A stretch of 64,000 nt of DNA from Amoebophrya sp. A120. Taxonomy: Eukaryota > Protista > Dinoflagellata. Below are positions 1,233 to 61,004 of this stretch, piece after piece. The stretch is from positions 912,449 through 976,448 of the forward strand of contig CAJINV010000021.1 in assembly GCA_905178155.1 (NCBI GenBank), read 5' to 3'. Below the pieces are notes generated by a model. That model ran no database searches and was not told the DNA's origin. It saw only the letters and a list, made by a program, of their open reading frames with translations. The stretch's first letter is position 1, and each line of letters begins with the position of its first letter. The position numbers and the translations under genes were made by a program.

Positions 1233-4200
1233 CTACAGAAACCCCGGCTGCACGGTTGGTTCCTGATTGAACAATATTCTCATGCACTTGCACCACTGTG
1301 GGGACAGTCCTTTCCTCTTCATACTGGCCTCGTCCATGAACTTGGTGATGCACTTTGTGTAGTGCCCGTACACCGTGATCTCCGCCAAGTGTCGCACGTC
1401 CACGCGCCCGGAGTCTAGCAGAATCACCGCACTATACTGGAACTTGCCGTTGACCGCCTGTTCGGGTTTGGGATTTTTTGAACTTTGATCATGTTCGAGC
1501 CCCTCCATGGAAGAGTAGACCAAGTGCTCCTGCGCGAATTCCACGATCACGTTCACGGTTGCAGAGTCCAGCACCTTCTGTCGGTTGTTGTTATCCCTTG
1601 TTTCGCTCGGGCGGATCAGGGCCGAGCTGGACTGGACCACACGACAGGGGGATTCGTGGAAGGGGAGGTCGCAGTATGACAGTGCACAATTCCCGCCCCC
1701 ACCTCATGTGTCATGCAAAATCCCAAATCCAGTCCTCACTGCCTCGTGGCACTGTTTGCATGACTGAATAAATTTCGAAAGGAGCCCAAACAGTACTACA
1801 GCAAGTGCATAGATTTGTCATGCACAGGCTCCAGGGTCGCTGGCGCCTGTATTGCTGTTCATGCAATACAAATGAGGGGAAGGGGGAGTTGTGCACTGTC
1901 ATACGCATATTTCGTCGACGTTCTCCACGTCGTCCTCCGGTTTCAGGGTGCGCAGCAAGGTATCCACTCAAGAAGTACTATCGCACTCGTAGTAATTATC
2001 GCAGTCATGCATTATAAATCCCCTTCTTGAGGTGCATCCGCATCACAAATCCTGTTTCTCAATCTCATGCTGAAGAAGTTTGTCATGCGGTTGCCACTAA
2101 CTAGTACGGTAATAAACTTTTGCATTTCATACACGGACCGCGGCATGTCCCCGATCTGGACCTGCCGGCGTTTGTAGGCGTGGTACCCGCCTCGATACTG
2201 CGTAATCTTGTCCGCGATCGCGGTGCAGAACTCGCGCTGCAGCTTCGCGGGCCACTCGAAGTGCAGAATGCTCTCGAAGCTCCACTCGGTCGGGACCTGG
2301 TTGTCCGCGGTGAGGTACTGGTATCTTTGTTCTACTTTAGGAGTTATAGTAGTTTCTACTGCTCCTGTGGCGCTTGCCGCTGCGCCGGGCGACTTTTTGC
2401 CTGACGTTATGACGGAATACAAAACGTCGTAAATATGGTGGGGCGACAGAGGTTTCTCCGCCGCGTAGGTGGCCAAGTTTTGCTCTAAAACAGCGCCCAG
2501 ATGTTGAGGAACGACTTCGACGCCATTTGGTGCTGTTGAACCAGCTGCAGGAGGGGTCGTGCTGGGAGCACTAGCACCAATTTTCTGGTCCTTCCCGAGC
2601 TTGACCACCAGGGGTGGATTGCGGTGGTGAAAGGCCTGGAGTTCCAAAAACGGCGACACCGGGGGGATGCGGCCGTGGTCGGAGCACAGGATCAGGGACA
2701 AGTTTGGGTGGCGCAGGAAGAGCTCGCGGAAAAAATCGCGAAAAAACGTATCCATGTTGTTCACCACGGGGGCGCCGGGGCGGTACTTCGGGTGCAGCAT
2801 GGTGTGTCCCTCGTCGAAATAGGCCACGGCAAAGGCCTTTTCGTCCTTGAAGACGTCGTAGAAATCCAGGAGGTCTTCAAGTAACAGCTTGGAAACTTGA
2901 TGCTCCGACTCCAGCTCTATCGAAGGGTCTTGGATCGTGGAAGACGGCCCGGTGCGCCGTCCTTGTTTTCCAACGCCTTTTGTATTTTTGCCAAAAGAAG
3001 ACGAAGTAGATCCAGCTGTAGTTCCTTTTCCGTCGTCGTCCGGTGGATCTACAACTCCACCTGTAGTCGCTCCAGCTATTATTGTTCCGGGCCGCACGGT
3101 GCTGTCGGTTTCAGCGATTTCTTTTTCTTTCAGAAGGGTTTTCAGGCCCAGCGACTCCTGCACGTTTTCTTGGCCGCCGCCAAAGTAGTAGCTCGCGCCC
3201 GTTTCCATCGGCGCGACATGGATCAGGCGCTCGCCCGTCACGCGATCAAAACAAACGCTGTACCCGTTTTCGGTGCGACATTCCAAACCTTCCGGAACCA
3301 CGCCGGCGTCCAGCTGCTTGGCGAGCTGCTCGCCCTCCTTCTCCTGGTCGCTCCACGCGTTCACGATGGTGTTGGCCGGTTTGGATGTTGCGGGGAGATG
3401 TTGAACTTGAATCCCGGAGGAGGTTATTACACTTGCACTGCTTGACTCTGCTTCGAAGATTTCCGACGGAGCAAGTGTCGCTGCAGTACCATCGTTCCCG
3501 TGGTCAACATCTTCCCCTCGGCCTTTGTTTTCCACAATAGCTGCTGAGCTACTTGTGCCAGTTCTGATCTCTGCTCCATCAGTCCTCCTTATTCGCAACT
3601 CCGTACTGCTGCTGAGGAATTGCCGACCCTCTGGCGCACCTTGGACCTTCTCCCCGGGCTTCAGCCCCAGCTTGTCCGCGTCCGGACGCTGCCCGTGGCC
3701 CCAGCGCTTGAAACTGCGCAACCGCACCGCCGTGCCGTTTTGCAGCGTCGCGTTGAAGGCCGGAGACAACACTTGCGTGGCCCGCCCCGTGCTGCACCAC
3801 CCTTTCACCGGCGACCACGTGCGCGCGGCGTACTGGCTCTGCAGCTCGGCGAAATGCATCCAGTAGCTGAGGCAGTAGCACTTCTGGAACCGCGTGTGCA
3901 GGCTGCAGTCGCAGCCGGCGAAGGTGCGAAAGCCCTCCTGCTGCGCGACGCTCAGGATGTGCTTCTCCTTGTCCGTCCACACGTCGCGGTCGCGCCATAT
4001 AGAGTTCTCAACCGTCACACTCTCAACTGTTACATGAGTTTGTGATGCACGAACAGCAAAGGTTAAATCGGGTAGCTTGCAGCTCTCGCATCACAAATAT
4101 GGCGCAGATTATCAGCCTGTTTAGCACTTGGGGGATTTGTCATGCGAAGTAGCTTGATCGTGTGGCAGCTGGTAGCAATTTTGCATGGCAAATCGTGTAA

Positions 4201-5958
4201 CAGTTGAGAGTGTAACGCTTGAGAATCCCATACGCCAAAACTTCTGCCCGGTAATTATTCCGAGTAAAAACATCCCCACCCCAGAGTTGTCATGCAAATT
4301 TGCATGCCAAAAAAGTTTCTCATGCGAAGCCCCATGAGAAGCTTTTTCTAGTCGCGTTTTGGGATTTGTGATGCTAGAAATAGCATGATATGCTAGATCT
4401 GTGATGCTGCTGAACTAGCTAAACAGGACTACACTACGAGGACAAACTTGTCATGCGAGACCACCAAAGTTGGCCGATTTGTCTAGCAGATTTTCCACGT
4501 TGACTCTGGTATGGGGACGTTTTTACTCAGGATAGTAATATTCACGCCGGGGCGGGCGGGGAAGGGTTCGCCGTGCGCCATGGGATACTGATTCAGCGGA
4601 GAATTCGGCTATGCAAGAATACAAATTTTTTGCCGTACACACAAAATGCATCGTACACATTTCAACATCCCCCAATGAATGAGGGAGAGCATGTTGGCAT
4701 TTGGTGTACGCTACTACAAAAACCTCGAAGGTAGTGCATTTGTAAGTACAATAAGAATAAATTGAAACTGTGTACAACTATTACGGCATAATGAATTTCC
4801 TGTCCATATCGGCCCGACGACGTTGAAGTTGTCGAAAATTGTAGCATTCAAGTACTGCGACAGGTACAGCATCGTCTTCGGCAGGCTGCGAAGCACTTCA
4901 CGAAAGCTGAGCATATCGAGAATGATGAGAAGGACCTTTTTCTTTGTGTCTTCACCGTCCTCTGCGGTCTCTGCTGCGGTCGTTTTACTAGCGGATGTCG
5001 AGGGGTTCTCAATTTCTCCTCTTTCCTGTTTAGTATCTTCCAGTGCACCTTCACCTCCGGAAGCGGAGGGCAGTCGCAGTGCGTGTGGTTCATCAAGATC
5101 TGCAGGAAGAACTTCCGAGGAGGTACTACTTCTAGAACTTGTGGCGCTAGCAGTACTGACCCCTTCTTTACGTTTACTTTTTTCTCCGCCAAGAGAAGCT
5201 GCATCCCGAAGAACAAAATCAGCCGCGCCTCCTGAGGCCCGTTTCCCCCGTGCGTTGACCAATTTGCTCGGATGCGGCATGCCCCCCTTCTCCGCGACGC
5301 AGTTTTTCACGGCGTCGGGGATGTTTTTCTCCTCGGTAAACAGGCTCTCCATCGCGCACCCGTCCCGACGATTGGCGATCTCCTTGTGGTTCAGCGCCTC
5401 CACCAGTTCGTCCATCCTCCGGAACTCTTTCACCGCTTTCAATTTCTGTCGGTGGGCCCGGTCGTCGCGGCAGAAGCCCCAGGGGTGGTCGAAAAAGAAC
5501 GGGTCCGCGACGTCCTCATTGGTCCAGCTCTCGTGCTCCTCGAAAAACAACGTGACTTCATCAAGTGACCCCGATGCGGTGGTTATTGTGGTGTTTTTCT
5601 GCATGAGGGCTTCGTCCTCGGCCCGCTCTCGCTGTGTAACTTCTGGTCGTGCAGTTTCTGTTTCTGGTAACGCAGATTCTGTCTTCCTATCCTCCTCGTT
5701 GTAAATTTCGCCCTTTGCAGATGCCTCGTCCTGTATTTCTGGCAGCATTATTCTATGCCCAACTGGAATGTCCATGCGCAGACTTGTGGCTGCCATGAGG
5801 CGGTTCCGTCTCTTCAATTCCTCCAATCCCTGCCTCCGAAGCGCGCCTCCGCTTACCGAGCGAAAGCTGCTCGATAGTTGTACACAGGTGAGGCAAGCAA
5901 CAACAAAATAGAGACCACGGAGAGCGGCCAACATTGAGAACGGACGCAGACGCAACAT
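1233..5958 (-). CDS. DUF229 / alkaline-phosphatase-superfamily protein with signal peptide; 6 exons
   Basis: Removing 5 introner elements joins the ORFs in frame: VLLIILDMLSFREVLRSLPKT...FNVVGP|NSPLNQYPM...GVNI|TGQKFW|RDRDVW...LILCSDHG...HHRNPPLVV; motifs resemble DUF229; hydrophobic N-terminus. Confidence 0.7.
1675..1903. mobile_element. Introner element, family A (TIR tatga(c/g)agtgcacaa(c/t)tccc)
   Basis: TAT...ATA ends; direct repeat cgcag/cgcat; removal gives DEIC|DLPF in frame. Confidence 0.9.
1961..2131. mobile_element. Introner element, family B (TIR tat..tgcaaaagtatcg), degenerate
   Basis: Direct repeat caagg/cacgg; removal keeps frame PRS|(V/L)LRTLKP. Confidence 0.8.
3998..4232. 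mobile_element. Introner element, family C (TIR tatgg.gttctcaa.cgttacactctcaactgttac)
   Basis: About 35-bp TIR; perfect direct repeat cgcca; 235 bp. Confidence 0.92.
4256..4534. mobile_element. Introner element, family D (TIR tatcctgagtaaaaacgtcccc)
   Basis: Perfect direct repeat gtaat; frame restored GVNI|TGQK. Confidence 0.92.
4610..4808. mobile_element. Introner element, family E, degenerate TIR
   Basis: TAT...ATA ends; perfect direct repeat tcggc; restores VVGP|NSPL. Confidence 0.82.
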
Positions 5959-9989: not shown

Positions 9990-12900
9990 TCACCGCCCAG
10001 CTCGAACCCTGGCCTCCGCGATCCTGGTCAGCCTTTCATTGCCGGAAAACAGGGAGTCCGATCCCAAGGATGGTTCGCAGTCCACGGGCTCTCCGAAGAC
10101 TTTCCTCGGCAAAGAGATTGCTCGCAAGTACTGCCAGCCAAATCGGACGTTGAAAGCCAGCCACAAACTGCACAGAAACGTGAAGGGCAGATTATGGCAC
10201 TGGATCTGCTCCAGTTGCTCAGACCAGTAGTAGCCAATCACATTTTCCAAGCAGATCAAAACCACCGTGAACAAACAGCACTCGGCGTCCCAACTAAAAA
10301 CGTCCCCACCTACCCAGAGCAAAGATGGGGATTTTCTTGCAACACAAACTTAGAAGTTTTGGGCGTCAAGCATGACACGTAGCAGTCCGTAGTGTAGTAG
10401 TGCAGGTATTAGCAAGGACAGCCGCATTACCATCTGCTTATCCTGTATACAGCATTGCAAATCCCACCACACGGTCGTTGGAAATAAGTACTTATCATGG
10501 AGATGCGCATCACAAACGTTCCTGTCATTGCAAATCAGTATGTTGACAACTCTGGGCGGAGGTGAGGACGCTTTTGCAGAGGATAATCGGCATAGAAGTC
10601 CAGTTTGGTCGCGTAGGCAAGGCGCGGCAACTTGTCCCCGATGACCAGTTTGAACGCGAGCTATCCACAGGAAATTTCCCGCACACGAGCACAACGTACA
10701 AATGCTGTCTCTGCATCACAGAACATGCCTCCAATCTCAGTCAGAACGACAGGTTGCGTTGGATACTTCATCAAGTTCTTAGTTTGTTATGCATAATTTT
10801 GTACCTGTTGTACGGAAAATTTGATGTATTTCATACCACTACGGTTAAAAGCATGGTAAAAACAATGGACAGCCGGCCCGGTAAATCTTGAACGGGTAGA
10901 ATGAAGCTCGTGAAGGCACAACAGGTCAAGCCGAGCAGCGGAAACAGCACCGACCGCGTGAAGTGCTGGTGCTTGCGCGATATGATCAAGGTCGATTCAA
11001 ACTTCTGTATGCAGTGCAAAAGTTCTTCTTGTATCGCACTCGTAGTAAAAATTGCAATTTAATGCATCACAAACCTCGACTCTTAGGCGGGTTAGGTAAA
11101 TCTATCAGCATATACAATTTTCAGTTCTATATTTCTTTTCAGGAATTTCTACCACATACGATTTATTACTTTTGCGATGCATACTCTGCTTTTCGAACCG
11201 GTTTCCAAACACTTGCGCCCCCGGCGGATGCAGGTTCCACTCGTCAATCAAGCTCTCCCCCATCATTTTCTGGTTGATCCGATATCCACAGGAAAAGACC
11301 TATCGATCTCCATCCATTTTTTGCATGACAAAGAGCACAGGCAGGTTTGAGGCATGCTTTATTGCGAGACAAATTCGATGCTGGTGGGGAACAACAATCA
11401 AGGGGTTTGGTCTTTTTTGTGGATCATATCCGGTTCCGCTTTCCGACGAAATACTTTCCGTAGTCCGGGTTCGCGGCCACACCGGCTATCCTATGTAAAA
11501 CCATCGCACTCGTAGTAGTTGCAGTCATGCATTACAAATTTTTTACTCAAGGTAGATCCACATTACACATTTGGTTTCTCATGCTGAGGGAACAAAAATT
11601 TGTCATGCATTTATACGAGTACGATACTTTTGCAATGCATACCGGCCCCCCACATGCGAATCTGTATCGTTAGGCTTTGGACGTCGCAGGGAAACTCGCG
11701 GAGCTGAAACGATTCGGTAAAGGTGCCGGTAAAAAAACCGGACTTCCGCAGTGTGCCGGGAGGATTTTTCACAGCGCCGTCGCGCCGGTACATTACCTAG
11801 GGGAGTGTGACTACATATGAATTTTGGACTGTCCTTCCCATATGGCATAATCCATTAACAATACCCAGCCACCCAATGTCGTCGTGGTACTCTCAAGCAT
11901 TAAATGAATGTGAATCCAACTGAGACGACGAATAAACAGTAACAAGCCGTACTAGAGGTGTGGAGAACTGTGCTGTCAGTACCTTCTCCGCCGGCCGACC
12001 GCCCTCCGCCTTCTCCCTGTCGCCGTCGTGGTCCAATTGCAACATGGGCCCAAACGCCGTCTCTGTCAGTTCGACGCAGTTCGCGAAAAACAGAACCGGC
12101 CGCGTGTTGGCGAACACGAACTCATCGGATCTATCAATGTAGGGTCCGTGTGCGAATGCAGGGTCAAACCAGTCCACGGTCAAGTATGGAACTCTCAAGC
12201 GTTACATTCTCAACTGTTACATGATTTGTCATGCAATTTTACCACCAAGACCGCCGTGCTTACGCTCCTTCGCATGGCAAATCTACGAAGGGCTGGACAG
12301 CATCTAAATCTGTGCCAAATCTGTAATGCAAAAGGCGCAATCTTCCCCCTTTCACTTTTGCCGTTTTTGCATGACAAATCTAGGTAACAGTTGAGAATGT
12401 AACATTTGAGAACGCCATATCAAGTTGATGCGCGCCTTGAACGTGTTTTCCAGCGGGTTCACCGCCAGCAGCGCGACCCACTCCAGGTGGAGGGTGACCG
12501 CATTCGGAAATTTTGGGAAGTGCCCGTGATTGGCGAAGAAACGAAATTGTGGCAGGTCCGTGGAGTCGAAGGGGTACTTGATATACGGGCTTTCGTTTGA
12601 TTCCTTTTCTACTTCCTCTTGTTCACGAGGTGCAAGTTTGTGTTTGACAAAAACGCCATTATCGACTACATTGCTTCCGCTTCGAATTAGCGCATCTTTC
12701 TCTGACTCTGTTGTATCTGGCCGCGCGATCCACGAGACTGCGATGTTGCAGTTGCCTGAACAAGCGGCAGTGGTTGCCTCTGATTCTACGGGAGAAGCTT
12801 TCTTCGCGTCGGGTTGGCTAGTCGATAATGTTGTTTCTTGTGCGACGACAGCGATGCTGTCGAACACACCACAACCCTGTCGAGGGTCATCGTGGCCCTT

Positions 12901-13260: not shown

Positions 13261-13833
13261 ACTGTTTGGACTACTTCTGCGTGTCGTGCCACGACCACCA
13301 AGAGATCAACGTAATTGTAGTAGGAGCTAGATGAACTAGGTCTAGGGCTACTTAGCACGAAGATCTTGATGGCGACTTACATGCTCCACTAGTACCAACA
13401 AGAGGAAGACGATCATACCATTCTTCACCATATCAAGATCCTTTTTCCGAAGATATTTTCACGACCGACAACATCATACAACGAATACGAATACGAATCC
13501 GGGGAACTACTTGCAAAGAAAACGAATCGGTAGAAAGTGTGAAGATATGTTGATAAAGCAAGGTTCTAAAAGTTGTATTAAACACGATAAAAACAAGTAC
13601 GTGTTCCTGCACATCCTACGAACACAAAACCGTTCTCTGACAGCATCAGCACGAGCGGAGGTGCATCGCCAGGACTCTGATTCCTCCAGATCGTGTTCGG
13701 TTTGTACATCTGTTTTGGCTCCTAGTACAAGGAGCGGATGTGGCTGTAGATGAAGCTGTAGACACAGCGACAGCACCAATCGCAATGATCGCAATACTTA
13801 TAGACCAAAACGACCGGACAACTACAGCATGTC

Positions 13834-17800: not shown

Positions 17801-19797
17801 GAAATATCAACCGGCACTGCTGGCGTTCTTGCCGTCGTTTGTTCCTCCCCAAATAAATGACTATCTGCTTGATGTTGTGCGACGTAATTGAAGTCTTCTG
17901 TGCTGGTCCTCGCGCTGGTCAACATTTTGACATTTCTATTCGTAACATCCGCTTGTTGCACGTGCGACGGCTGCACATCATGTTGGACCTCCTCTTCTAA
18001 GAAAAATTCCCGTGAGCAGAGGTTGGACTGTGTCTGTGTCTGTGCTCGCCGTTGATGTTCCTCTTATGAGAGTGCACAACTCCCCCTCCCCCTCATTTGC
18101 ATGGCATAAGCAGCAACGCAAGTGCTGGCATAAATGCAGCTTTTGCATGACAAATTCGCTACCGATTCTAGTGCTGTTTCGGCTTCCGAAATCTGTCATG
18201 CAAGATGTGCCAAAATAAAGAAAAGAGTAGATTTGGTATTTCGCATGACAAATGAGGGGGAGGGGGAGTTGTGCATTGCCATACCTCCCCTGCTCGTCCC
18301 ACCACGACGACATCGTCGACACACTGGCAGAGACACAGGTTATCAAATGTAAAAATGTCTGGGCCTGGAACACTGCAACTTGTCATGCTAAATCTGAACG
18401 ATGCAAAAATCTGTGTTGCGTGAGTACTCAAAGCTGTCAGCTTTTGACCAAGTTGAGATGGAGTTTCTCATGCAGAAAAGGCATGATAGAGGCCTGAAAG
18501 AATCTGTCACGCTAGGTCTCGCATTCCAGACCTCATGGGTCATGGAAAACTTGCATGACAAGTCTTGCAACGTTCCAGACCCAGACGCTTTTGCATTTGA
18601 TAGAGGTAATTCTGCAACAGAAAAGGGTCCGTTTTGTAGATCGTCCGGATGACCAGGTAGTTGCACGCAAACCACGCATACCAGGCCACGGCGAGCCCCG
18701 GGTGGACGATGAAACTCAACGCCGACGAACTCGCCGGCGCCGGGTCGCTGGTACTATAATAACTGCTCGCGGGCGGTCCGCAGGTGTCCTGGAAATGCTT
18801 CTTGGCAGAGGCGTACTGGAGAAATTCGGGGGCCCACAGTGTAATGGCCAACATCGTCAGCCAGGATGCAAGAAAATGCGCGGTCCAGAGAAGGGCCACG
18901 AAGACGGCGCTCCAGTTGATCCTTTTATTTCGATGTTGTTGTGGTACGGCCATATCCACAGTTTGGTTGTTGATGTACCCATTATTTTTTCTATGATCCA
19001 CCTCATTGCGCCCCCTGCTGGTGGTGACTCCTTGATGTTGATGTTCTTCGCGACCACACGTCGACTTATCCACCTTTAAGATTCGGGCAGAAGTCGACGT
19101 CGTGTGGGAAACGCAGCGCAGAATTTGCACCAGCGCGAGCACGCCGATGAGGGAGATTTGCGGAAAAATCGGCAACGCCGGCCAGGTCTTTGAGGTAGTC
19201 CCGTCCTTTATCCTGAGTAAAAACGTCCCCCCCCCGAGTTGTCATGTAAATCTGCATGGTAAAAATGCTTCTCATGCGGAGCCCCATGAGAGGCATTTTC
19301 TATTCGTGCTTCGCAATTTGTCATGCTCCAATCGGCATGCTGTGCTGCCTCTGTGATGCTGCTGAACTTGCTAAACAGGATCACACTGCGAGGCCAAATT
19401 TGTCATGCAGAACTCCCAAAACTTGGGAACTTGTGTTGCAGACTTCCCATCTTGACTATGGTGTGGGCATGCTTTTACAGATGATATCCTTTTCGAACAG
19501 GTTCGCGCACTCGTACAGACGACCCTGCCACCGGTGCTCGAAGAGGAAAACAACGAGGCAGGTCGCCGCGAAAACCGTGCCAAAAAAGTGACTCAGCGTC
19601 ACACGCATGTTGATGCTGGAAGTTTTTCGTATGCTACAACGATGTCCTGCTGGAGGAAAAATTCTTCGAAAAAGAATCTGCTTTGGTAAAACTATATATT
19701 CTTGATCTTCTAATATGTCCAGTGCCTTGGTCGGCAACTTGGAAAGCAAAGGGAAGCTGCTGCAGCTAGTACCTACATGATCATTTTTGGACCTCAT
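14776..19797 (-). CDS. Large multi-pass membrane protein of unknown function; 4 exons; start codon uncertain (19797 or 19608)
   Basis: Three element removals join the ORFs in frame (LFEKD|GTTSK, LQNYL|CLCQC, RAGE|EHQRR); several hydrophobic helices separated by low-complexity loops. Confidence 0.65.
18065..18283. mobile_element. Introner element, family A
   Basis: Long TIR; direct repeat cctct/cctcc. Confidence 0.9.
18341..18602. mobile_element. Introner element, family G (TIR tatcaaatgtaaaaatgtctgggtctggaa)
   Basis: About 30-bp TIR; direct repeat caggt/gaggt. Confidence 0.9.
19209..19486. mobile_element. Introner element, family D
   Basis: Perfect direct repeat tcctt; body similar to 4256-4534. 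Confidence 0.9.
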
Positions 19798-42200: not shown

Positions 42201-43597
42201 ATAGTGAAACCCATGGCAGGCTTTCGCCAGCCCTGTCATGCAAAAACGCCGTTTGTCATGCGGAAAGCGCAACACTAAGCCTCGGAAATATTTCTCATGC
42301 TTGGCCGCTATGCATTACAGACCATTCACTATTCACAACTCAGCATTACAAGTTTCCAGACCCAGACATTTTTACATTTGATAAGCCGCCACTCTCCTTC
42401 GCGAGCTTGCGTTCCCGCCGCCGCCGCGCCTTCTCATCCCGCTCAAGCGCCGCAAACCCCTTCACCAGCGGGTCGGCCTTCGCCTTTTATGCAATGCAAA
42501 AGCATTGTACAAGAATGAATTGCTATTGCATTACAAATTAACCCAGCATTACAGATTAAATCTGTAATGCTGGTTTACCTTGAGAAAGAGACGTGTAATG
42601 CATGAATGCAATTACTACGAGCACGATACTTTTGCAGTGCATACCTTTTGAAAAAAGTCAATGTCCTTCTCGCTGCTACCGGTAATCAGGATATCAAATG
42701 CAAATGTGTCTAGGTCTGGAAACTTGTGATGCTAAAATGTGGATGATGGAGACACAAACAGTTCCCCGGAATGCAATTTAGCATGACAACTTTCATCCGG
42801 AACGCTCTCCCATAGGCAATCCGCATGAGAAACTGCGTGTTTGCATGTACAAAAGAGGCTGCGGCTTTTGCTGGTTGCGCAATACAGATTTCCTAGGTAT
42901 GGAAGGCTAGCATTACAAGTTCCAACCTTCCAGACCCAGACATATTTGCAATACATACAGGATCTTCACAAACGACGGAAGCTGCTGCACTACAGGAAGA
43001 GCAACCTGAGCGGGGCGGGGCGAAGATGAAGAGAACGAAGATGGTGCCAGTGTGCTGCTGCTGGCGTCAACGATCATAGTACCACTCTCCACTATGCAGC
43101 CCGCCCCTCCATTTATTTCCTCTACTTCCGAGGGTTTTTCCGGCACTGCCGCCTCGGACGCGTAGTTCATCTCCTCGTCAACGTTTTTAGAGTTAATGTC
43201 ATCTTGATGTTGTGATGGTGATGCCGCATGATTCGGATTGGGATGATCTTCTTGCGGCCCGAGCACCATGTCTCTGGCTTTCACAAAGGGCGAAACCTTC
43301 TTGCCATGGTAGATGATCGTGCAGGTTTCCTTACGCACGTCGAACAGCTCCTTCAAGATGTCAAACAGCGAAACCTATGAACTGCAAAAGTACCGTACTC
43401 GTATCTATAAATGCATTACAAATTTCCTCAGCATGAGAAATGAAATTTGTAATTCGGATTTACCTTGAGGAAAAGATTTGTAATGCATGACTGCACTACG
43501 AGTACGATACTTTTGCACAGGATAAAACCAACCGCTCCTCCCCGTCCCCAAACGGGACGTCGAACGGCGTCCCGCGAAACGTGAATCGAAGGTTCAT
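39249..43597 (-). CDS. WLM (Wss1-like) zinc metallopeptidase with ubiquitin-like N-terminus and C-terminal PUB domain; 10 exons
   Basis: Nine element removals give EAEKLLTKLA|HDPAIVKIM...VGLLTEMSP|...DL|LGFNENAGARIVLRLRTDDTKGFRPY..TLIHELVHNTFGPHDDKFW; PUB-like NLVQHPTEEKYRQLPLSNAKI. Confidence 0.88.
39408..39558. mobile_element. Introner element, family B
   Basis: Perfect direct repeat cggtc. Confidence 0.92.
39610..39767. mobile_element. Introner element, family B, opposite orientation to 39408
   Basis: Perfect direct repeat tggca. Confidence 0.92.
40979..41238. mobile_element. Introner element, family G
   Basis: Perfect direct repeat gcaga. Confidence 0.88.
41292..41498. mobile_element. 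Introner element, family A
   Basis: Perfect direct repeat cagga; TIR tatgagagtgcacaactccc. Confidence 0.92.
41577..41767. mobile_element. Introner element, family B-like, degenerate
   Basis: Perfect direct repeat ggcca. Confidence 0.82.
41883..42383. mobile_element. Introner element, family G, with about 245-bp internal insert
   Basis: Perfect 30-bp TIR; perfect direct repeat agccg. Confidence 0.92.
42488..42643. mobile_element. Introner element, family B
   Basis: Perfect direct repeat ccttt. Confidence 0.9.
42692..42957. mobile_element. Introner element, family G
   Basis: Perfect direct repeat cagga. Confidence 0.9.
43376..43524. mobile_element. Introner element, family B
   Basis: Perfect direct repeat aaacc. 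Confidence 0.92.
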
Positions 43598-44679: not shown

Positions 44680-46322
44680 TCAACGGCCATAATGAATCAG
44701 GCCCACTTCCTTGTGGAATTGGTTGACCAACTCTTCTACTGTCCGCCCGTACACCTGACCGTCGCCAACTTTTGCGTTTCCGGTTTTCCACAGATTAAAG
44801 TAGTCGTGTTGGACGCGTTCGAACTTTGGGAAGAAGTTTTCTTCGGCCGCCTCTACCTCGTCGAGCAATTTCTTCAGAAAGTCCAAGCTCTTTTCATGGT
44901 TCGTGGGGCCGCCCCTGTATGAAATGCAAAAATATCTTGGTCTGGAAGAACAATGCGCGATGTGTCACGCAGCTTTTCCATGACCCATGAGGTCTCGTCT
45001 GGAATGCAGGACCTAGCATGACAGATTCTGTGCGATCTCTCTCATCATGCCTATCCTGCATGAGAAACTCCCTCCCGACTTGGTCAAAACTGGACAACTT
45101 TTGGTAATCACGCAACACAGATTTTTGCATGCTTCAGATTTAGCATGACAAGTTGCATTGTTCCAGACCCAGACATTTTTACATGTGATACCGTGACCAT
45201 ATTGGAAATTTTGGATGGAATCATGGACTTGGCGACGGAGAGGATGCTCTCCGCCTCCTCGTGCTCCGCCAACCGCTCAAGTTGATGGAGGCCGCGCTTG
45301 ATGCTGCTAAGAGCCGCCTTAAAGCGGAGGGCGTCGTGTGGTGTGGCCACCTTCCCCTCATCCGTCTTCCAGTATTTTTTCTTGACATCAAAGAGCACCT
45401 CGCGCGATTTCGTCAACACGTCGTGTAACTCGGAGTGCACACGTTCCATCGTGGCGGGGGCGTGACAAGCTGAATGGAACCTGCCACGCTTTGCCCATTC
45501 CTTGTGCCCCGAAACCACTTCCAGCAAGGAGGCCTGTTCCGTCTTCTTGCCGGCAAAATCCTCCGGCGCCCCGGCGTCGATTTGACCGGTTGCGGAGACC
45601 TGCAGAGTTGCTGCCTCGTCGCTCGCCGCAGAAGCAGCAACAAAAGCTGTTATGCCGAGCCCCAGCCCTTTTTCGACTAACAGCGGACACTCCTTCTCGG
45701 TCAACTTCTCGCTTCCGTCCTGGTCCAGCGCGACAAAATCCGTAAAAAAGACCGCGCTGGTAGGCTGCCGCGACGTTCTCCGTCCGTTCTTCATACGTAC
45801 TACCACTCGCCGGATCCGTCAACACGGTCATCATCAGCTTCACCTGAGAAGTAAACGCGTACAAAAAATCCGAATGAAAATGAATGACCACACTGCAGCA
45901 ACACCAACACATCGATCCTGTTTATGGAGGTTATCAAAAAAAAATGCCTCACGTCGAGGAAGCAGCAGAGCAGTTAAAGCAAAGCGCTTCAGCAAGAGCA
46001 TCAATTACAATTTCATCACCTGCGGCTCCGGGTACCCAGCAGCGAGCAAAGCCTCCTTTTGCTGCGTCGCGTCGTGGTCCTTCTCGTTCATGAGGAGGTC
46101 GAGCAGGGCGGCCGTGTTAGCGGCGTCCGGGTGCGAAACCGTAGGCGGAGAATGCAGATTCGTGGTCGTCGTCGGGGGGGGGGGAATCTCCGCTGTCTCA
46201 GATTTTCCTCGCAAATTTCCCGAAACCGGAAGCACTTGGAAAAACGTGGCGAGAGGCCAGGAGAGGAGGCACGGGAAAACCGCCGTCTTCACGACGGAAG
46301 CCAGGAGGTGACGGCTTGCCAT
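44680..46322 (-). CDS. Hypothetical protein with hydrophobic N-terminus and an EF-hand-like loop; apparent frameshift near 45745
   Basis: MASRHLLASVV...PEPQ, GT-AG intron, VKLMMTV...; DQDGSEKLTEKE lies in an adjacent frame; element removal gives MVT|GGPTNHEKSLDF. Confidence 0.5.
44918..45190. mobile_element. Introner element, family G
   Basis: Direct repeat ccctg/ccgtg; body is a reverse-complement relative of 18341-18602. Confidence 0.9.
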
Positions 46323-47652: not shown

Positions 47653-48100
47653 CTACAGCTCTTCTCCGCCGCCGGACGACATCATCATCGTCTTGAATTT
47701 GGTCATGATGTACTATCCACTCCAAAAGTATCGCACGATTTAGCTGTGACGCATGACAAATCCTGTATCTTTACGTAAATCAGCATTACACATTACACTT
47801 TTCTTCTTTGCATTAAGATTTGTCATGCAATTTCCACTAGTAGTACGATACTTTTGCAATGCATATGTGCAGGAACACGACGATGACCATGTAGCTCAGA
47901 GCCATCACCAGCACCGTGACCGGCCCCACCTTCAACCCGGTGCCGTCCCCCTCGCTCGAGAACCGCAGCAAGTTGTTGGTCGGCTGTCCCGCAACGGTAT
48001 CCTTGCTCTTGCTCGCCTCCTGGCGCCCCGGGCGGCGACCGGCCGTTCGCAAACCGGCTCCGACGGCCAACCGTCCTCCAGCAGCAGGGGTGTCAGACAT
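47653..48100 (-). CDS. SEC61B: Protein transport protein Sec61 subunit beta; 2 exons
   Basis: LLRFSSEGDGTGLKVGPVTVLVMALSYMVIVVFLH|IMTKF matches the Sec61-beta signature GLKV.P..VLV.SL.F...V..LHI. Confidence 0.88.
47714..47865. mobile_element. Introner element, family B
   Basis: Direct repeat tgtac/tgtgc. Confidence 0.85.
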
Positions 48101-50335: not shown

Positions 50336-53300
50336 TCACTTCGCTATCCCTTGCGGTTTCGAGGACCCACCAGCAGGAGCGTACCGTCCGTTTGGCATTC
50401 GCCGCCTCGTATTTGCAGTCTTTCTGTTTTGATGTCCCCGTTGTACAGTAACCCGAGTCGTGCTCCTGGCACTCTTCTGCGCCCCTTGCTTCTGTCCGCA
50501 GCGCCCCTGTAAGGCATTTTTTATCTCTACTCGGCCTGCTGAGGCCCGACCCGCGACACTGCCGGATCCACTGCCGCTCCCACTGGACCCCGGCGTGATA
50601 TCTTCGGAAGAAGAGTCCATATCTTCAAAAGGCATGTTCTTTGATGCAGAAGTTCCTGCGCCCCAATTGTTGATCATGATCTGCCGTTGGTGGTGGGAAT
50701 CGATCTTCGAATCTGGCAGGAGAAGGGACTGCTTTGGCTCTTGCGGGTCCCCCTGGAATGATTTCTCTCGGAGGTGCTCGTCTACGACCGCCATCTTCTG
50801 CATTGTAGTTCCCTGCATGATCTGCTGCTGATAGGTGGTTGGATTGAACCTCTCGCCAAAGTTGTTTGCTGGCTGCTGCTGTCGGCAGCTGTCAATGACG
50901 GAGGACTGGTGCAGCTGGTGCTGTTGCATATTTTTGCCGTGATTTTTTATTTTGCAACTTGCGACGCTACTTATTGGAGCGTAAGTGTAGACCGTACTGC
51001 CGTCTGCCAACTGCATTGGCATCAGTGCAGGCATGGGGTTTTGTTGATAGTGGTGCTGGTTATAATTTTGGCCGGGGGAAGCGTGGTTGTTGTCGTGTGT
51101 TGTCGTGCCGTTGTACTTCTCCTGATCTACTTGGCGACACAAGACGGAAGAGGACGCCGCTCCGCCACCGAAAAAAGTGCCATTTCCTGGCAACAGCTGC
51201 ACTGGTTGCTGGTGCAGCAGTAGTTCTGCTTGGCGATCCTGAGTTAGTTCTTGCCCCAGAAGCTCAAGCTGCTGCACTGCCACTGGTTGATGACCTTCTC
51301 CTCGTTTCCCACCCTCACTTCCTGGAAACAACATTGCTCCCCGCTCATGATCTGCGGTTCCGCGCCCGCCTCCCCCGGCGATATTCACGAGGACACCGCC
51401 TCCCGTGGCCTTGGTCGTGTTGTCCTTCTCCTTATTCTTGCGCTTAATGTTTAATTGTCCAGCGTCAACAGAAGCAAAATTCGGTGTATTTTTTTCAATC
51501 TTCGCTTTTTTGCTTTTCCGCTCTCGTCCAGCACTTCCAGAATGGTGTATCAAATATTCCTGATCTCGCGACCGCATGTAGTGCAACTGTGATAGGCCAC
51601 CGCCACGACGAGCATGAACATGATCTAGGTGCTCGCCCACTTGCAGCAGCTGCTGCTGTTCCGATTGTCTTTTCCGCGCCCACTCCTCATTTTTCCTGCT
51701 CTCGCTGCTCATAAAGTCGAGACACAGACTATCCACACTAAATTTATTCCCGTACTACCACACGCACAAAATGCATCGATAATTATTTGTTCTCCAACTT
51801 AGAGCATGTAGTTGCCACTTGTCATGCTAACTACTTAGGATCGAAGGCAAGCTTTGTCATGCAGAGACCGCGTTTGTCGGTCGTCGTCGTGGACAGGAAA
51901 TTTACTGTGGACCATACGGATCCTCCGTCGCCAGCTGGAAGGGCAACTCCGGGCCGCGGTACACGTCTGTGTTACGGATGCCCGCGGCCCGCGGAAACGG
52001 CCGGGACGGGTCCTTCCACCAATAGTCGGGAACAGGACTTATTTTTTTCCGTTTATTCGCAACATGTACATGAGGAGGTGCACCACCTTCTAGGTTGACT
52101 TCGTCTGTTTCCTGGTAGTTGTAGTTCACTAACATCTTCTTCTCATCATCTCTACTCTCGACGGCCGCTGCGCGCTCCTTGCGCTCGTGATAGCTAGACT
52201 CCAGCAGATTTAGAAAGGAGCTAAATTTGCTCAAAAATTTCGAACCCAGAGACGAAGATGAAGTGGTTGCACTTGTTGCCTGATCCCCCTCCGCAAGTAG
52301 AACATCAGCTTCGCCGCGGTGGGACGGCGGAGGCCCGTTCTTGGCCGCAGGTCCCGCAGTTCTCCCCAGTGTGGTGGTAACGGTATTTTCAGCTGGTTCA
52401 ACAGTAGACCCCGGCTGCAGCTCCCGCACCGGTGACAGAGATAATTGGGCCTGACGCTCTTGCTGCGGTCGTCGTGTGCCGTCATTTTGATGATGCGTCT
52501 CGGTTTGGTCTTTTCGCGCGGCGGTAGTTGTAATTTGCTCTGATGTTCTTGTTGAACATGTCCACCCTTTCGCGACCTCCTCGCGGAGTTCGAGTTGGTT
52601 GATGTGAAGGGAGAATGCGCTGCAAGAGTAATTATACTGCTCATTCTCATTGTAATCACGCATGACAGAAGAAATCGTGTTTCTATAGCCAAATCAGCAT
52701 TACAACTCCGAACTCCATGTCCATTTGTTTTTGTCCACCTTCTGAAAATAAACTGGTAACGCGATGTATTTATTACACTAGTGCGAAGATATAGTACTTT
52801 TGCAATCTGCATAGTAAGAAGTACTCCGTTTTCCGGAGCAGTTGCATGACCTGCAGGTCTTTGTCTGGCGGGGGAAGCCGATGGTCGGCCATCTTCTTGA
52901 AACTAGCCTTCCACTCTTCGATGGCGCGCTGCAGCCAGGGAAACGGGGCATGGATCACCTCAAACACAAAGAACTCCTGCTCGTCAGGTTGTAATTGCAC
53001 ATCTACTTCCTGCACCTGCTCGACGAGATGACCATCTTTGCCAGAAGTTTCTGCTGTCTCAGCTTCGCGCGGTGATGTGCTGGGCTTCGATCTTGGATAG
53101 ACAGATGCTTCTCTACTCTTCCCTGTGGTTGTAGTTGAGGTCGTGGCCACTTTAACATTTTTTTCTGGCAGCTGCGGATCGTGCTGCGCCAAACAACCCG
53201 AATCACAACCACGTTTCGTCTTAGGCACAACGATGTTCCTCCTTTTCGTTTTCCTCAACCCCACCGCTTCCCCGGTGATGTAGTCCCGGCCGGTCTTGAC

Positions 53301-54215: not shown

Positions 54216-56923
54216 TCAGTCTTCGTGCTTGTACACGTGGGTTTGCGTTCCTTGGCTGTCGTAAAAGTGTATTTCGCGCAGATTCGGAATCGTGCCCCAG
54301 CAGGTCCAGTCGACTGCGCACCAAATGCGGCTCACCTCCACACGCGGATTGTACAGAGAAAACGCCCGACTGCTGCTGTGCGACGCCGCGCTGCTCGGGA
54401 ACCAGATTTATCCTGTGCAAAAGTTGTACCGTACTCGTATTGCAGCACTTTTCTGAAGCTAAATCCGCATTTACAAATTTTATTTCTCATGCTGAGGAAA
54501 TTTGTAATGCATGACTGCATTTATACGAGTACGATACTTTTGCAATGCATAATATTCGCGCGCAGTCGATTCCCTCGGTTCCCACTAACTGCACCACTTT
54601 TCCACTCTCAAAAACCGATGCACTGCTGGCGCAGGAAGAGCTAACGGCAAGATTCGTCGTTGCTCCCACGCTGTTGGAGATCCCACTTGCTGCTGCTGTA
54701 GTCGAGGTCGTTGTCGAGGCTGCTGTGGTCACTGCGGTGGACGAAGTTACGCTTGCGGTTCCTGAAAATTGCGCGGCAGTTAATAGTTCTGCTGGTGCTT
54801 TCGTTGTGTCGTTCATGTTCATGTTCATCTTCGTGCTCCCGCTACTATTTTTGTTTTTCTCAAGCAGCTTTTTAGGCTGTTCCTTCGCAAGCTCTGCTGC
54901 GTCTTCCTTCGCGACTTCAGCTTCGTCGTATGAGAGTGCACAACTCCCCCTCCCCCTCATTTGTCATGCAAAATACCTAATTTACGCCTTGGCTCTCGGC
55001 ACTGTTTGCATGACAAGTTCTGGCAGCCCAAATAGCACTACAATCCTGTCCAAATTTGTCATGCGAAATCTGTATTCTTGCTGGCGCTTGTATTGCTGTT
55101 CATGCAATACAAATGAGGGGGAGGGGGAGTTGTGCACTTCTATACGTCGCGCAACGTGAACCCCTTTTTCACCTTGAGCGTCTCGGTCACTTTTCCGAGC
55201 AGCTTGCTAAGGTTATCCTCGAGGAGAATCTATGAACTGCAAAAGTATCGCACTCGTATAAATGCATGACAAATTCCCTCAGCATGAGAAATAAAATTAG
55301 TAATGCGGATTTACCTTGAGAAAAAAATGCGTAATGCATGACTGCAATACGAGTACGATACTTTTGCACAGGATAGAACCTGAGGGGAAAATTCGTCCAC
55401 GTTCTCCTTCTTCGAAACCTCGCGCCACTCATATCCAAGAAAAAAACTAAGCGAGTGTAAATTTGTGATGCTGAATTATGTAGAACAGTTATCACTTGTC
55501 ATGCTGGACTTGCGTCATAAGCTACTTTGACTTTCATGATCCGCGTTTCCACTAATACTGGCTGCGCATGACAGGTTCCTTTGTTCCCGGTAAAAATGCA
55601 AAACGAATTTGTGATGCTGCTCTCCATAGAAAGTTACACTTACGCAGTTTTTTTCCTGGATGACTCAGCCTCGATCACCACTGACGAATCGTCTTGCATT
55701 GACTCGTCGGCTTCTACACATTTACCAGAGGTGGCACCAATTGTCGTCCTATCTTTATTTTTCATCGACAGCTGAGCAGTGGAACTAGAAGTACAACCTT
55801 CTTGTCTCTGCGCAAACTTCCGTCGCAATAGCAAGGCCCGTGGGTACTTCTGAATGAATATTACCAGCGTCGCGGAGCGTGAAACGCCCAGATTGCTAAC
55901 GCCACTCCCGGTGGACAGATTCCTTCCGAGCTTTAATGTTTGTTCCGCGGCGCTTGTTGTATATGTATCCCCGGCGGAGGAAACGGATTTTGTCTTTTCT
56001 ATCCTGTAGTTCTCTCCTCGTGGTCCACGACCATCCTGGACGTTTAATCGATCTGACGGACCTACTGCTGCACTTCCCCCTGCTTGCGACGGGCGGGTAG
56101 AAAAAGTGGTCGTTACGTGTGCGTCAAAGCTGCCGCTCTGTTGGTGCAGAAAAAACTGCTCGGAGGTCAAATCCGCCGGTGTCGGTAAGTACTCCTTCGC
56201 CATATAAAAGTGCACAACTCCCCCCCCCATTTGGATGCCATGAACAGCAATACAAACACCACCACACGTGGAGCCTCTGCATGACAAATGTGTGTGCTTA
56301 GTGTAGTACTCTTTGGGCTTCATCCGGAATTTGTCATGCAAACAGTGCCACAAGAAAGCAACAAATAACTGGATTTGGGTTTTTGCATGACAAATGAGGG
56401 AGAGGCGGAGTTGTGCACTGTCATACGCCAGCTCATTGATGTAGTTCCCGGCCGTTTTTACGTAGTCTGTCCAGGAGATAGTAGTTGCAATTTGGTTCAT
56501 TTCTCCGCCCTGCGCACCAGAATTATCGCCTTCGGTCGACGGCGACGTCCTATCTGCCTCGTTGATGACCTCTGCGAAGTCCTCGATTGCGAGCCAGTCA
56601 TCTTCCTCGTCGTAGTCAGTTTCATTGTCGTCTATAATTTTCTCAGCTGGTTGGGCAGAATTAACATCTTCTGCCAGCGCTCCACCGCCAAGCACGACAC
56701 TGCTAAGTTTCTGCAAGGGGCCCCTACTACACGCCGACAGTTCCTTCCTGTTGTGGTCCTTTGACTTTGATGTTCTCGCAGCTGCATTCGATTGTGCAGT
56801 CGGTGAGTACACGCGGATCGGCTGGATCAAACACCATCCAGGTTCGCCCTGCTCCGGTGGTGCAGTGTCGCCCTTCGAGGGGTCTTTCTCCTGACTACCG
56901 CTGCCGGTGTTCACGTTTCCCAT
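54216..56923 (-). CDS. Hypothetical protein with MG N-terminus (possible myristoylation); 6 exons
   Basis: Five element removals link the ORF segments, ending CAR|IWFPSSAASH...HVYKHED stop. Confidence 0.6.
54409..54551. mobile_element. Introner element, family B
   Basis: Direct repeat agatt/atatt. Confidence 0.9.
54929..55144. mobile_element. Introner element, family A
   Basis: Perfect direct repeat cgtcg. Confidence 0.92.
55231..55375. mobile_element. Introner element, family B
   Basis: Direct repeat gaatc/gaacc. Confidence 0.9.
55432..55662. mobile_element. Introner element, family H-like
   Basis: tatccaagaaaaaaact...agtttttttcctggatg; perfect direct repeat actca. Confidence 0.82.
56203..56425. 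mobile_element. Introner element, family A
   Basis: Perfect direct repeat cgcca. Confidence 0.92.
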
Positions 56924-58123: not shown

Positions 58124-58962
58124 TCATTTTCCACCCCCCGTCGGTCTGTTCTCCGGCGGTTTGCTGCCGACCGGAAACCCTGCTGGATCCAACCGCACCG
58201 CCACGCCCTTCGCTCCCCCAACCCAGCTGAGCATTGTGGAGTCGCAGAGCATGCCCTCCGACGCCGACCCGCCCACCGAGGCCTTCTGCACTGAAGTTCC
58301 GCCGTCCTCGACAGATTTCTATGGATTGCAAAAATGTCTGGGTCTGGAAATTTGTAATGCTGCGTTGGGAATAATGAATGCTCTGTAATGCACAGCCAAG
58401 CATGAAAAATATGATCTGCGCTTCTTTGTGTTGCGTTTTTCGCATGACAAACTGCGTTTTTGCATGACAGGCCACAGGGTGAGGGTCTCTTCTTGGACAC
58501 GCATCACAAACTTTTTGGTCATGCCAGACAAGCATGACAAACATGCATTCTTCCAGACCCAGACATTTTTACAATCCATAATTTCCCCGCCGGCACGATT
58601 GCGCCGACCTGCGCGACCACCACATGCTCACCGACTTTGACCTTCACATCGTTGGTGACGATGGTCAATAGGGTCTTCTTGTCTTCTTCGTCGTCGTTTT
58701 CTTCTTCTCTTATCCTAACCTGCAACTTGTTCAACTTCTTTCCGGATGGCTCGGCGGATTCAACTTTTCCAACGACAAAATTGGCAAATTTCTTCACCCA
58801 GGGGAATTCCTCGTAGGGGAGACTCTCGCCGCAGGAGAGGCACATCGCGGGGCCATGCTCGTCTTCCGGGTCCTCCGGCTCAAACTCCGTGCTGCCGCAA
58901 TCCGGCTGCGGGCACGCCAGGCGGCCCCCGTAGGGCGTTTCTTCCGAGGCGTCGAAGGTCAT
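58124..58962 (-). CDS. tRNA-binding OB-fold protein (EMAP/Trbp111/PheRS-B2-like) with N-terminal Cys4 zinc ribbon; 2 exons
   Basis: CPQPDC..CLSC, FVVGKVESAE..KLNKLQV..TIVTN..VKVGEHVVVAQVGA..GK|SVE..KASVGGSASEGMLCD. Confidence 0.78.
58320..58580. mobile_element. Introner element, family G
   Basis: About 30-bp TIR; perfect direct repeat atttc. Confidence 0.92.
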
Positions 58963-59536: not shown

Positions 59537-61004
59537 TCATCCAACAACCAATTCTTTCACTTCATCGATCCCATATCGCAAGGAAAAATCCCCCCTCCCC
59601 ATATCGAAAACGAAATTTGTGATGCTTTATTTGAGGTCACAAATCGATTTGTCATGCTAGAAGGCCAAGAGCCGCAGCCGTTGCCTCGTTTGCAGACAAT
59701 TTGTCATGCTGTTTCCCACTCTCAGATGCCTCCTCTCATGCTGAAGATGCAAGGCTTCGCCACGCCACCCAGCACTACAGTCCGCATCTTTTCCCGTGTA
59801 GCATGACAAAGCTGATTTGTGACAACAAATCTGCATTACAGATTTCCGTTTTGATATGGGGAGGGGGGATTTTTCCTTTTGATATCCCACCGCCATTCTT
59901 CACATTTGAATACCTGGTTTCATTTGTTCAACAATTTTTTCAGCGATCGTGTCTGTGCCATCGCAGTACTACAGCATGACAGATCTGGCTTCTTAGCTTC
60001 ACGTATAGCAATACAAATTTATCATTCGTTTTTCCTTCTGGAAGAACTTGTCATGCTATTTCTACTAGTGCGATACTTTTGTAATGCCTATCCCTATTAA
60101 CGATAAGTAGCGACTACCCGAGTTCCCTCAAGGCGTCCGCGGCCCTCTGCGCCCGTCTATGCGAAGAAAAAAGTGTTACAGTCACACACTGTGTTGCGAA
60201 ACAAGCAAGACAGGCAACCTTTGTCATGCAGGACATGCTTGGCAGCCTCATTTAATTCGTGTTTTCCCTTATAGTCTGCGCATCACAGGTTTGCTTTGGC
60301 ATGTCGAGCAACTTTGTGATGCAGAAACTCCAACAAATGTGTAACTGTATCACTTTTTTCCTGGGATACCGTCCACCCACCGCACAGTAGACCAGAATCG
60401 GCTTTGCCTTGTCGTCCGCAGGCAGCAATTGACTAGCGGCGTTGAAGGCCGCGATCGGATCGTCTGTCATCCGAATAGAGATGTTGACCGAATTGGGCAC
60501 CTGCTTTTCCGCAAACTCCTCCGGCGTGCGGACGTCCACCAGCAGCGCATTTGGATCCTTCGCAGTTTTCTCCCACTCCGGCTCCGTCACCTTGCTCGCC
60601 TGGAAATCCGGCCCACGCGTAGTGCTGCTCATCGTGCGCTTTTGGTGGGATAATGATAAAGGAGTGCGAGTTGATGAAAATCTTGTGCGGTCTTCTTCGT
60701 GCCCGCGGCTTTCTCGGGTTCTTGCGGTACCGTGTTGCCGACGAGAACTTTTACTCGCTGACGGATGAACAAGATCTGCAGGATGTTGTTGTCCTGCCAA
60801 AGCGCCTTTTGATGTAGTTGAACCTCCGACCAGAAGTTCCGATGCCCTTATGCCACGAAGAATTGGTGAGGGTAGTAGATGTAGAAGTCCAGCGAAATTG
60901 TAAATATCGCTATTCAACAACGTCAAGGTGGAGGAAGGAAACAAAGTAAGTTTTTGATTTCGGCTCGTCGGAAGAGATGCCCTGCGACAGATACTGCGAA
61001 GCAT
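59537..61004 (-). CDS. Single-domain rhodanese (sulfurtransferase), probable mitochondrial presequence; 4 exons
   Basis: LLVDVRTPEEF..VPNSVNI..ILVYCAVGGR|AQRAADALRELG|YSNVKNGGG|IDE; R/S-rich leader ending KRTMSS. Confidence 0.85.
59574..59884. mobile_element. Introner element, family J (about 50-bp TIR tatc..aaggaaaaatcccccctccccatatc)
   Basis: Perfect direct repeat tccca. Confidence 0.92.
60158..60368. mobile_element. Introner element, family H-like
   Basis: Perfect direct repeat ccgtc; inserted in the active-site loop CAVGGR. Confidence 0.88.

Follow-up and report, generated by a model that had tools for sequence, protein, structure and literature searches.

A regularly spaced internal motif shared by the families of intron-forming elements in Amoebophrya sp. 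A120

Introduction

The dinoflagellate Amoebophrya sp. A120 carries introner elements, which the text of Farhat et al. 2021 describes as non-canonical introns bounded by inverted repeats and by a direct repeat of 3-5 nt (PMC7789003). In that text, more than 60% of the introns of A120 are non-canonical, 1,954 families of elements are counted and a general mobilisation by transposases is argued against. The present analysis bears on the mobiliser and on the splicing mechanism of these introns. The stretch analysed, hereafter the window, comprises 64,000 nucleotides of A120 contig CAJINV010000021.1 (positions 912,449 to 976,448, forward strand). A first-pass annotation of the window had noticed a short internal motif, GCATNACAAA, in element families with different ends. 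It had proposed that this motif is a common recognition code, either as subterminal binding sites of a transposase or as a protein or small-RNA mark that licenses non-canonical splicing on either strand.

In the part of their data covered here, Gozashti et al. 2025 assigned the A120 introners to several mechanisms, fam38 being listed as "Ginger, 5-bp TSD, TA/TA termini", where TSD stands for target-site duplication (PMC12130899). Ginger1 and Ginger2-Tdd transposons are described with TGTNR ends and target preferences, and TDD-4/5 make 5-bp TSDs (PMC2836005). Several eukaryotic DNA transposons, namely piggyBac/piggyBat, Tol2, Ac and Tag1, have documented subterminal binding sites that are arranged in arrays (PMC11707139).

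A motif confined to the elements

The motif is a real and apparently undescribed feature of known elements. Exact GCATNACAAA or its complement has 79 matches in the window (34 on the plus strand and 45 on the minus strand), for a mean of 0.92 and a maximum of 4 in 100 shuffles of the window. All 79 fall inside 52 elements with TAT…ATA ends. Seventy lie within 40 elements called blind to the motif and covering about 8.6 kb (65 in 38 elements and 5 in two others); the remaining nine belong to elements delimited by hand, some of which were drawn after the list of matches was known. Once the 52 elements are masked, the remaining 51,061 bp hold no exact match and 19 matches to a position weight matrix (PWM) of the motif. 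In the same way, six GT-AG introns (1,357 bp) hold no exact match and two PWM matches of at least 9 bits, against 18 per kb within elements. The motif is thus scarce outside the elements, GT-AG introns included, and enriched within them.

The wider analysis covers 579 elements, from the window and from 533 kb of non-redundant DNA in 134 of 143 related loci (nine redundant loci were dropped and four trimmed). These loci were found by a pattern scan in one other public assembly and do not overlap the window. They carry the same element families, and a codon-usage model trained on the window assigns their strand consistently; gene strand was assigned for 505 of the 579 elements. Because the retrieval pattern was of the family-B type and includes the motif, family B is over-sampled; the B copies that match the pattern were excluded from the rate tests and kept in the counts and in the spacing and orientation tallies. 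Elements were called from their TAT…ATA ends, the similarity of their terminal inverted repeats (TIRs) and a 5-bp flanking repeat (at least 4/5 demanded), and the main caller, when run on 194 kb of shuffled DNA, made no false call. A terminal PWM refined by iteration was given up, as it drifted toward two families. Twelve families with at least four copies were tallied.

The family-weighted PWM, about A-YYTGTSATGC, is broader than the form tttgt(c/g/a)atgc first given for the motif. Its variable base is G, T or C, and an A is found in only 1 of 79 copies in the window and 7 of 998 in the loci. At least one PWM site is found in 571 of the 579 elements and at least two in 559, all 12 families being represented. 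Mean numbers of sites per element range by family from 1.9 to 5.7, compared with 0.0-0.37 in shuffled interiors, which serve as the control because the PWM was trained on the same elements that it scores. The claim of a motif present in many copies across families therefore stands, and that of several copies per element holds for the degenerate form (at least two PWM sites in 44 of the 48 window elements tallied) and not for the exact one (several copies in 27). For example, the stretches 4256-4534, 12185-12419, 22539-22708, 39408-39558 and 59574-59884, named as multi-copy, hold 1, 2, 3, 3 and 4 exact copies, the first being multi-copy in its degenerate sites only (seven). Both orientations coexist in 483 of the 579 elements, families E, H and I departing from this rule. 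A possible likeness of the motif to the Sox2-Oct4 composite site is taken to be a coincidence.

Spacing and conservation of the sites

The phased spacing of the sites is new beyond the first-pass annotation. Pairs of sites in the same orientation, 31-33 bp apart, recur in 11 of the 12 families; three turns of B-DNA measure about 31.5 bp. These pairs do not stem from recent tandem duplication, since the identity of their flanks is close to background (0.10-0.51, in most cases 0.2-0.4). Fewer indels fall between the two sites of a pair, with 8.0 against 11.7 per kb (p=0.002). Inward-pointing sites (TTTGT…) start 31-33 or 41-42 bp from the element end, and further peaks follow at about 52-54, 61-64 and 70-75 bp. 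Their periodogram has its maximum at 10.25, and Rayleigh tests of phasing, with one value per family for 11 families, give p values of 0.001-0.005. The number, order and orientation of the sites vary among families, the 31-33 spacing being kept.

The motif columns are more conserved than the spacer columns in all eight large families. Among 386 elements, at columns where four neighbours agree, private substitutions amount to 0.0495 in the motif and 0.0854 in the spacer, that is a motif rate of 0.58 of the spacer rate, and the gap persists within A/T, G/C and CpG positions. The motif stays recognisable where neighbouring bases have diverged, as had been noticed at first.

The elements as non-autonomous transposons

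The elements are non-autonomous TIR DNA transposons, comparable to miniature inverted-repeat transposable elements (MITEs), with a 5-bp TSD. Two homologous loci, L010 and L058, have one insertion in common and at least five others that differ; empty sites show a single 5-mer while filled sites show the same 5-mer on both flanks, which identifies the elements as DNA transposons making 5-bp duplications. Among 571 called elements, the direct repeat at the boundaries is 5/5 in 422 and 4/5 in 149. They are short (family median lengths of 116-321 bp in the 12 families), non-coding, multi-copy and TIR-bearing. The matrix of 1,142 ends reads TAT (98-99% at positions 1-3), about seven variable bases and then at least three A, an A-run signature that is partly imposed by the caller, yet was visible in the first, A-run-blind scan. 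The shared part of the ends reads TAT-N4/5-TGCAAAA. Target sites show neither base preference nor enrichment in GT or AG at either junction, and the frame is open after removal of the element at 437 of 505 junctions. The elements thus appear to lie overwhelmingly in a coding context, and by eye long between-gene stretches of the window are devoid of them.

At positions 4-8 the two ends of an element show systematic differences (in 166 of 234 copies of family B, one end has G where the other has C), so that the TIRs of families B and C are asymmetric. The left-right concordance at TIR positions 16-29 (z 1.4-10) is a hint only, as it is inflated by the caller and by subfamily structure.

A probable recognition code at the DNA level

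The idea of a common recognition code is supported, because the motif is common to 12 families, conserved above the spacer and regularly spaced. Between the two options first proposed for this code, the data favour sites at the level of DNA and lend no support to a mark of RNA or small RNA tied to one strand, on account of the helical spacing, the absence of strand bias, the absence of covariation between mirror copies and the presence of site-less elements in intact genes.

The reading that we prefer, with a probability of about 0.6, is that the motif forms an array of predicted double-stranded DNA binding sites for one transposase or cofactor shared by the families. Protomers would bind the phased sites on one face of the helix and would load the catalytic complex onto the TAT-N4/5-TGCAAAA ends that the families share. 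In this way a single enzyme could cross-mobilise families that differ in the rest of their TIRs. Splicing might depend on the ends and on TIR pairing at positions 9-29, and the motif would perhaps decay after a copy has inserted.

Several results weigh against this transposase reading. The best period is broad (9.75-10.75) and 11 bp is not cleanly separated; the first sites that point outward show no phasing (six family-ends, p>0.5) and the intervals from the end to the first site no indel depletion. The families may share ancestry and would thus not be fully independent in these statistics. The terminus reads as a motif variant significantly in only three of the 12 families, in either orientation, which is a hint only. 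As for decay after insertion, the slope of motif on spacer in an end-decay test is 0.57 (95% 0.21-1.06), a value that lasting constraint explains no worse than neutral decay does. Furthermore, motif indels are flat with age (4.3 vs 4.5 per kb, without a rise in older copies), and the test stratified by TSD allows a proportional lasting constraint in 13% of bootstraps. Finally, no transposase was found in five longer elements of the loci, and the open reading frames (ORFs) tested from three of them and from the 2-kb element of the window have no transposase-like, rve or DDE match in Pfam. Farhat et al. 2021 report none in A120, as far as their text goes (PMC7789003).

The decay of old copies, which had been proposed as a check, gives a divided answer. 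In older copies (TSD 4/5), change rises by 0.020 in the motif (confidence interval 0.007-0.034) and by 0.022 in the spacer, and the insertion common to L010 and L058 differs at 3/40 motif and 14/187 other positions. By these two measures the motif would decay at the rate of the spacer, whereas the slope and the indel rates do not point to neutral decay.

This disagreement between estimators is why some weight is left to a fairly unlikely explanation, that of an orientation-blind splicing licence acting alone or beside transposition. A host protein on the phased DNA sites, or on either RNA strand, would recruit non-canonical splicing co-transcriptionally. Nearly all of these introns do carry the motif, which is rare in GT-AG ones, its constraint may outlast insertion (slope and flat indel rate above), and the presence of three to six redundant copies could make the decay of each look almost neutral. 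A120 is also described as having neither a detectable U1 small nuclear RNA (snRNA) nor a transposase (PMC7789003). Against such a licence stand the equal decay rates of the TSD-stratified and shared-insertion comparisons and the eight of 579 elements that have no interior site of at least 9 bits, all closed by stops in three frames. One of these, at 36811-37132, interrupts the IFT57 gene. The exons of this gene follow the Pfam model colinearly, and one of them is a 99% match to a protein that bears the label Amoebophrya sp. A120. This database protein, a gene model, skips four elements and crosses 36811-37132 as if the element and one TSD copy had been removed; remnants of 8 bits persist in this element. 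Together with the open frames at 437 of 505 junctions, this protein is an indirect sign that the elements may be removed from the mRNA.

In an unlikely combination of both roles, a single protein, perhaps a domesticated transposase, would read the phased array as a code at the level of DNA, both mobilising the elements and marking them in either orientation for removal from transcripts. If true, the dual-role protein would stand in for the missing U1, and the code would explain how tens of thousands of insertions in exons with arbitrary boundaries are tolerated.

It is improbable that the motif is a functionless relic of one repeat-bearing ancestor of all families. The TAT ends and 5-bp TSD found in all families make common ancestry likely, and the labelling of sites from consensus sequences is biased to conserved columns. 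Yet the motif persists beside flanks at near-background identity, changes at 0.58 of the spacer rate where four neighbours agree, and keeps its 31-33 spacing while the number, order and orientation of sites vary by family.

A strand-specific RNA signal (a branch-point-like UNAC read by a variant snRNA), or a pairing between opposite copies, is very improbable. Such a signal could be suspected since UNAC is part of GCAUNACAAA, which several families carry at 35-46 nt from their 3' end, and since the predicted pairing of motif bases exceeds that of the spacer (0.68-0.83 vs 0.51-0.64). However, a sense copy near the 3' end of every intron and a protection of the sense strand, as a branch point would imply, were not observed. 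The nearest sense copy of family B is 74-93 nt from the 3' end, and the sense copy on the 3' side is no better protected (p=0.87), inward sites changing at 0.042 at the 3' end and 0.041 at the 5' end. The branch-point consensus UACUAAC has an A at the position matching the variable base of the motif, which avoids A. Relative to the transcript, exact copies are 381 vs 380, without strand bias, and the eight large families insert at about 50:50; the sole departing family is H (0 vs 6, p=0.03 uncorrected). In family E, one strand bears 195 sites and the other 3, and only 1 of the 16 elements in one orientation has a strong sense copy, yet the insertions of this family are 16 vs 18. In mirror copies, the variable base is not concordant above permuted values in three of four families (28/104 vs 42; 1/15 vs 4; 2/18 vs 2), G-U pairs being unscored; family 22 is the exception (9/15 vs 5, p=0.02). 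A strand-specific RNA code or a pairing role of the motif is thus unlikely, given the lack of strand bias, the equal change at both ends and the lack of covariation in mirror copies.

The sites might instead serve not the transposase itself but a protein of the chromatin, or one of the host that bends DNA, which would aid spread by accessibility or protection. This reading predicts the same helical spacing and strand symmetry, but the sites of a general chromatin protein should also occur elsewhere, and with no exact and 19 PWM matches in 51 kb outside elements it is scarcely probable.

Search for an autonomous partner

No autonomous partner of the elements was found among the long elements of about 0.6 Mb, where 136 long ORFs were listed and scanned in part. 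The 2-kb element at 28160..30170 has no Pfam match in the four frames tested. In L044 (476-2934), a family-C element is split within its TIR by a 2.2-kb insert without obvious target duplication. The 415-codon open frame of this insert has no Pfam match and a homolog search returned itself alone, which again does not favour the transposase reading. Two TAT…ATA elements of 815 bp (L065 6184-6998) and 813 bp (L003 2129-2941), whose ORFs have no transposase match, are close in size to fam38 (808-810 bp, "Ginger") of Gozashti et al. 2025 (PMC12130899). In viral contigs, the family-C end has no match and the spaced motif pair has six, none of them element-like; the two that were examined adjoin a phage terminase-like gene.

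Elements and other repeats of the window

The elements are listed by position in the window, without strand, with the TSD and the number of exact motif copies; those marked "by hand" are hand-delimited.

1675..1903, family A, TSD 4/5, 1 exact
1961..2131, family B, TSD 4/5, 2 exact
3998..4232, family D, TSD 5/5, 3 exact
4256..4534, family E, one strand holding nearly all sites, TSD 5/5, 1 exact, 7 PWM
4610..4808, old element, TSD 5/5, no site of at least 7 bits, stops in three frames, by hand
10286..10585, family E, TSD 4/5, 1 exact, by hand
10662..10835, degenerate element, TSD not recognisable, 1 exact, by hand
11008..11183, family B variant, TSD 4/5, 1 exact
11283..11428, family H, TSD 4/5, 1 exact
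11487..11641, family B, TSD 5/5, 2 exact
12185..12419, family D, TSD 5/5, 2 exact
18065..18283, family A, TSD 4/5, 2 exact
18341..18602, family C, TSD 4/5, 0 exact, 6 PWM sites
19209..19486, family E, TSD 5/5, 2 exact
21689..21838, family B, TSD 5/5, 2 exact, inside a trehalose-phosphatase-domain gene
21873..22022, family B, TSD 4/5, 3 exact
22276..22491, family A, TSD 4/5, 2 exact
22539..22708, family I, TSD 5/5, 3 exact
22777..22919, family B, TSD 4/5, 0 exact, PWM sites present
23459..23671, family B variant, TSD 4/5, 1 exact, by hand
25267..25499, family A, TSD 5/5, 2 exact
25933..26179, family A, TSD 5/5, 2 exact
28160..30170, 2-kb element with family-A-like ends, TSD unclear, 1 exact, by hand
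31995..32188, element, TSD 5/5, 2 exact, by hand
32274..32442, family-B-like, TSD 3/5, 1 exact, by hand
32582..32965, old element, TSD 4/5, no interior site of at least 9 bits, by hand
35204..35404, family I, TSD 4/5, 0 exact, inside IFT57, by hand
36280..36515, family D, TSD 5/5, 3 exact, inside IFT57
36576..36746, family J, TSD 5/5, 2 exact, inside IFT57
36811..37132, old element, TSD 5/5, no interior site of at least 9 bits, stops in all frames, inside IFT57
39408..39558, family B, TSD 5/5, 3 exact
39610..39767, family B, TSD 5/5, 3 exact
40979..41238, family C, TSD 5/5, 0 exact, 6 interior PWM sites
41292..41498, family A, TSD 5/5, 0 exact, 4 PWM sites
41577..41767, family-B-like, TSD 5/5, 2 exact
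41883..42383, element of 501 bp with the ends of family C, TSD 5/5, 2 exact, sites grouped near both ends
42488..42643, family B, TSD 5/5, 1 exact
42692..42957, family C, TSD 5/5, 0 exact, 5 interior PWM sites
43376..43524, family B, TSD 5/5, 2 exact
44918..45190, family C, TSD 4/5, 0 exact, 6 PWM sites
47714..47865, family B, TSD 4/5, 2 exact, inside the Sec61-beta gene
51730..51915, element, TSD unclear, 1 exact, by hand
52633..52813, old B-like element, TSD 4/5, 0 exact, 2 PWM sites, by hand
54409..54551, family B, TSD 4/5, 1 exact
54929..55144, family A, TSD 5/5, 2 exact
55231..55375, family B, TSD 4/5, 1 exact
55432..55662, family K, TSD 5/5, 2 exact
56203..56425, family A, TSD 5/5, 3 exact
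58320..58580, family C, TSD 5/5, 4 exact
59574..59884, family F, TSD 5/5, 4 exact
59940..60102, degenerate B-like element, ends approximate, 1 exact, by hand
60158..60368, family K, TSD 5/5, 2 exact

The sole exact match of the element at 59940..60102 (position 60078) appears to be its altered terminal repeat itself. The interior of the 2-kb element (28400-30100) is made of GC-rich tandem repeats of about 120 bp and of short repeats rich in CCCC/GGGG. In the region 33247-33960, which lacks the exact motif, the two copies of a short duplicated segment (33247-33305 and about 33935-33990) enclose an array of another repeat that includes inverted units. An intergenic direct repeat of about 85 bp lies at 13820-13917 and 14773-14857, the region of its second copy having a raised depth in the DNA run; among the contig joints listed from this run, all are driven by repeats and none shows a splice junction. 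The Pfam-matched gene fragments of the window are all on the minus strand, the minus-strand frames alone having been submitted.

Between elements and their nearest neighbours, indels of 3 nt account for 226 of 685 (207 of 1 nt, 72 of 2 nt and 53 of 6 nt), and for 13 of 21 when an upstream stretch of L010 (1300-2210) that seems to be non-coding is compared with L058. This over-representation of 3-base indels in non-coding DNA suggests a triplet mutational bias.

Comparison with known systems

The elements of the window are the A120 introner elements, with the same TAT, seven variable bases and A-run in their inverted repeats, the same short direct repeats and the same apparent status of non-canonical introns (PMC7789003). 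In its text and supplement text, that study mentions terminal inverted and direct repeats only, without internal motif or spacing; the logos of its Fig. S25 could show the motif (PMC7789003). The A120 families of Gozashti et al. 2025 are similar TIR DNA elements of 149-320 bp, fam38 having a 5-bp TSD and TA ends, and no internal motif is mentioned in 12 of the 14 supplement files, with 40 of the 58 A120 rows (PMC12130899). More widely, no description of the motif or its spacing was found in the literature searched, including Gozashti 2022 and the A. sp. Kv genome paper, theses and subscription papers being outside this search.

In contrast to the view of the first description, the shared internal array and the true 5-bp TSDs point to one mobilising system (PMC7789003). 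With one phased motif, many of the 1,954 families reported would merge into this single system. Two sites 31-32 bp apart also make a defined bait for isolating the missing protein, and the dependence of splicing on the sites becomes open to a clean test across the genome.

Ginger elements have TIRs too and, for TDD-4/5, a 5-bp TSD (PMC2836005), whereas the elements studied here have TAT ends (98-99%, no TGTNR terminus), no target preference and no integrase in the ORFs tested. The nonconventional introns of euglenids and the non-canonical introns of Fritillaria have the same MITE-like origin, TIR pairing and TSD-like repeats at their junctions, but the review consulted gives no phased internal motif for them, within the part covered (PMC11282704).

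The array may also be compared with the binding arrays of transposons. Subterminal arrays are also formed by the TnsB sites of Tn7 and the TnpA sites of En/Spm. In the documented eukaryotic arrays, as here, a short motif is repeated internal to the ends, and the array of the left end differs from that of the right (PMC11707139). Here, in contrast, one motif is common to many families with otherwise different TIRs, fills elements of 140-320 bp and keeps a spacing of 31-33 bp, and the elements double as introns. By this analogy, the array of A120 would be comparable to a subterminal binding array, with sharing across families and helical spacing as its new traits.

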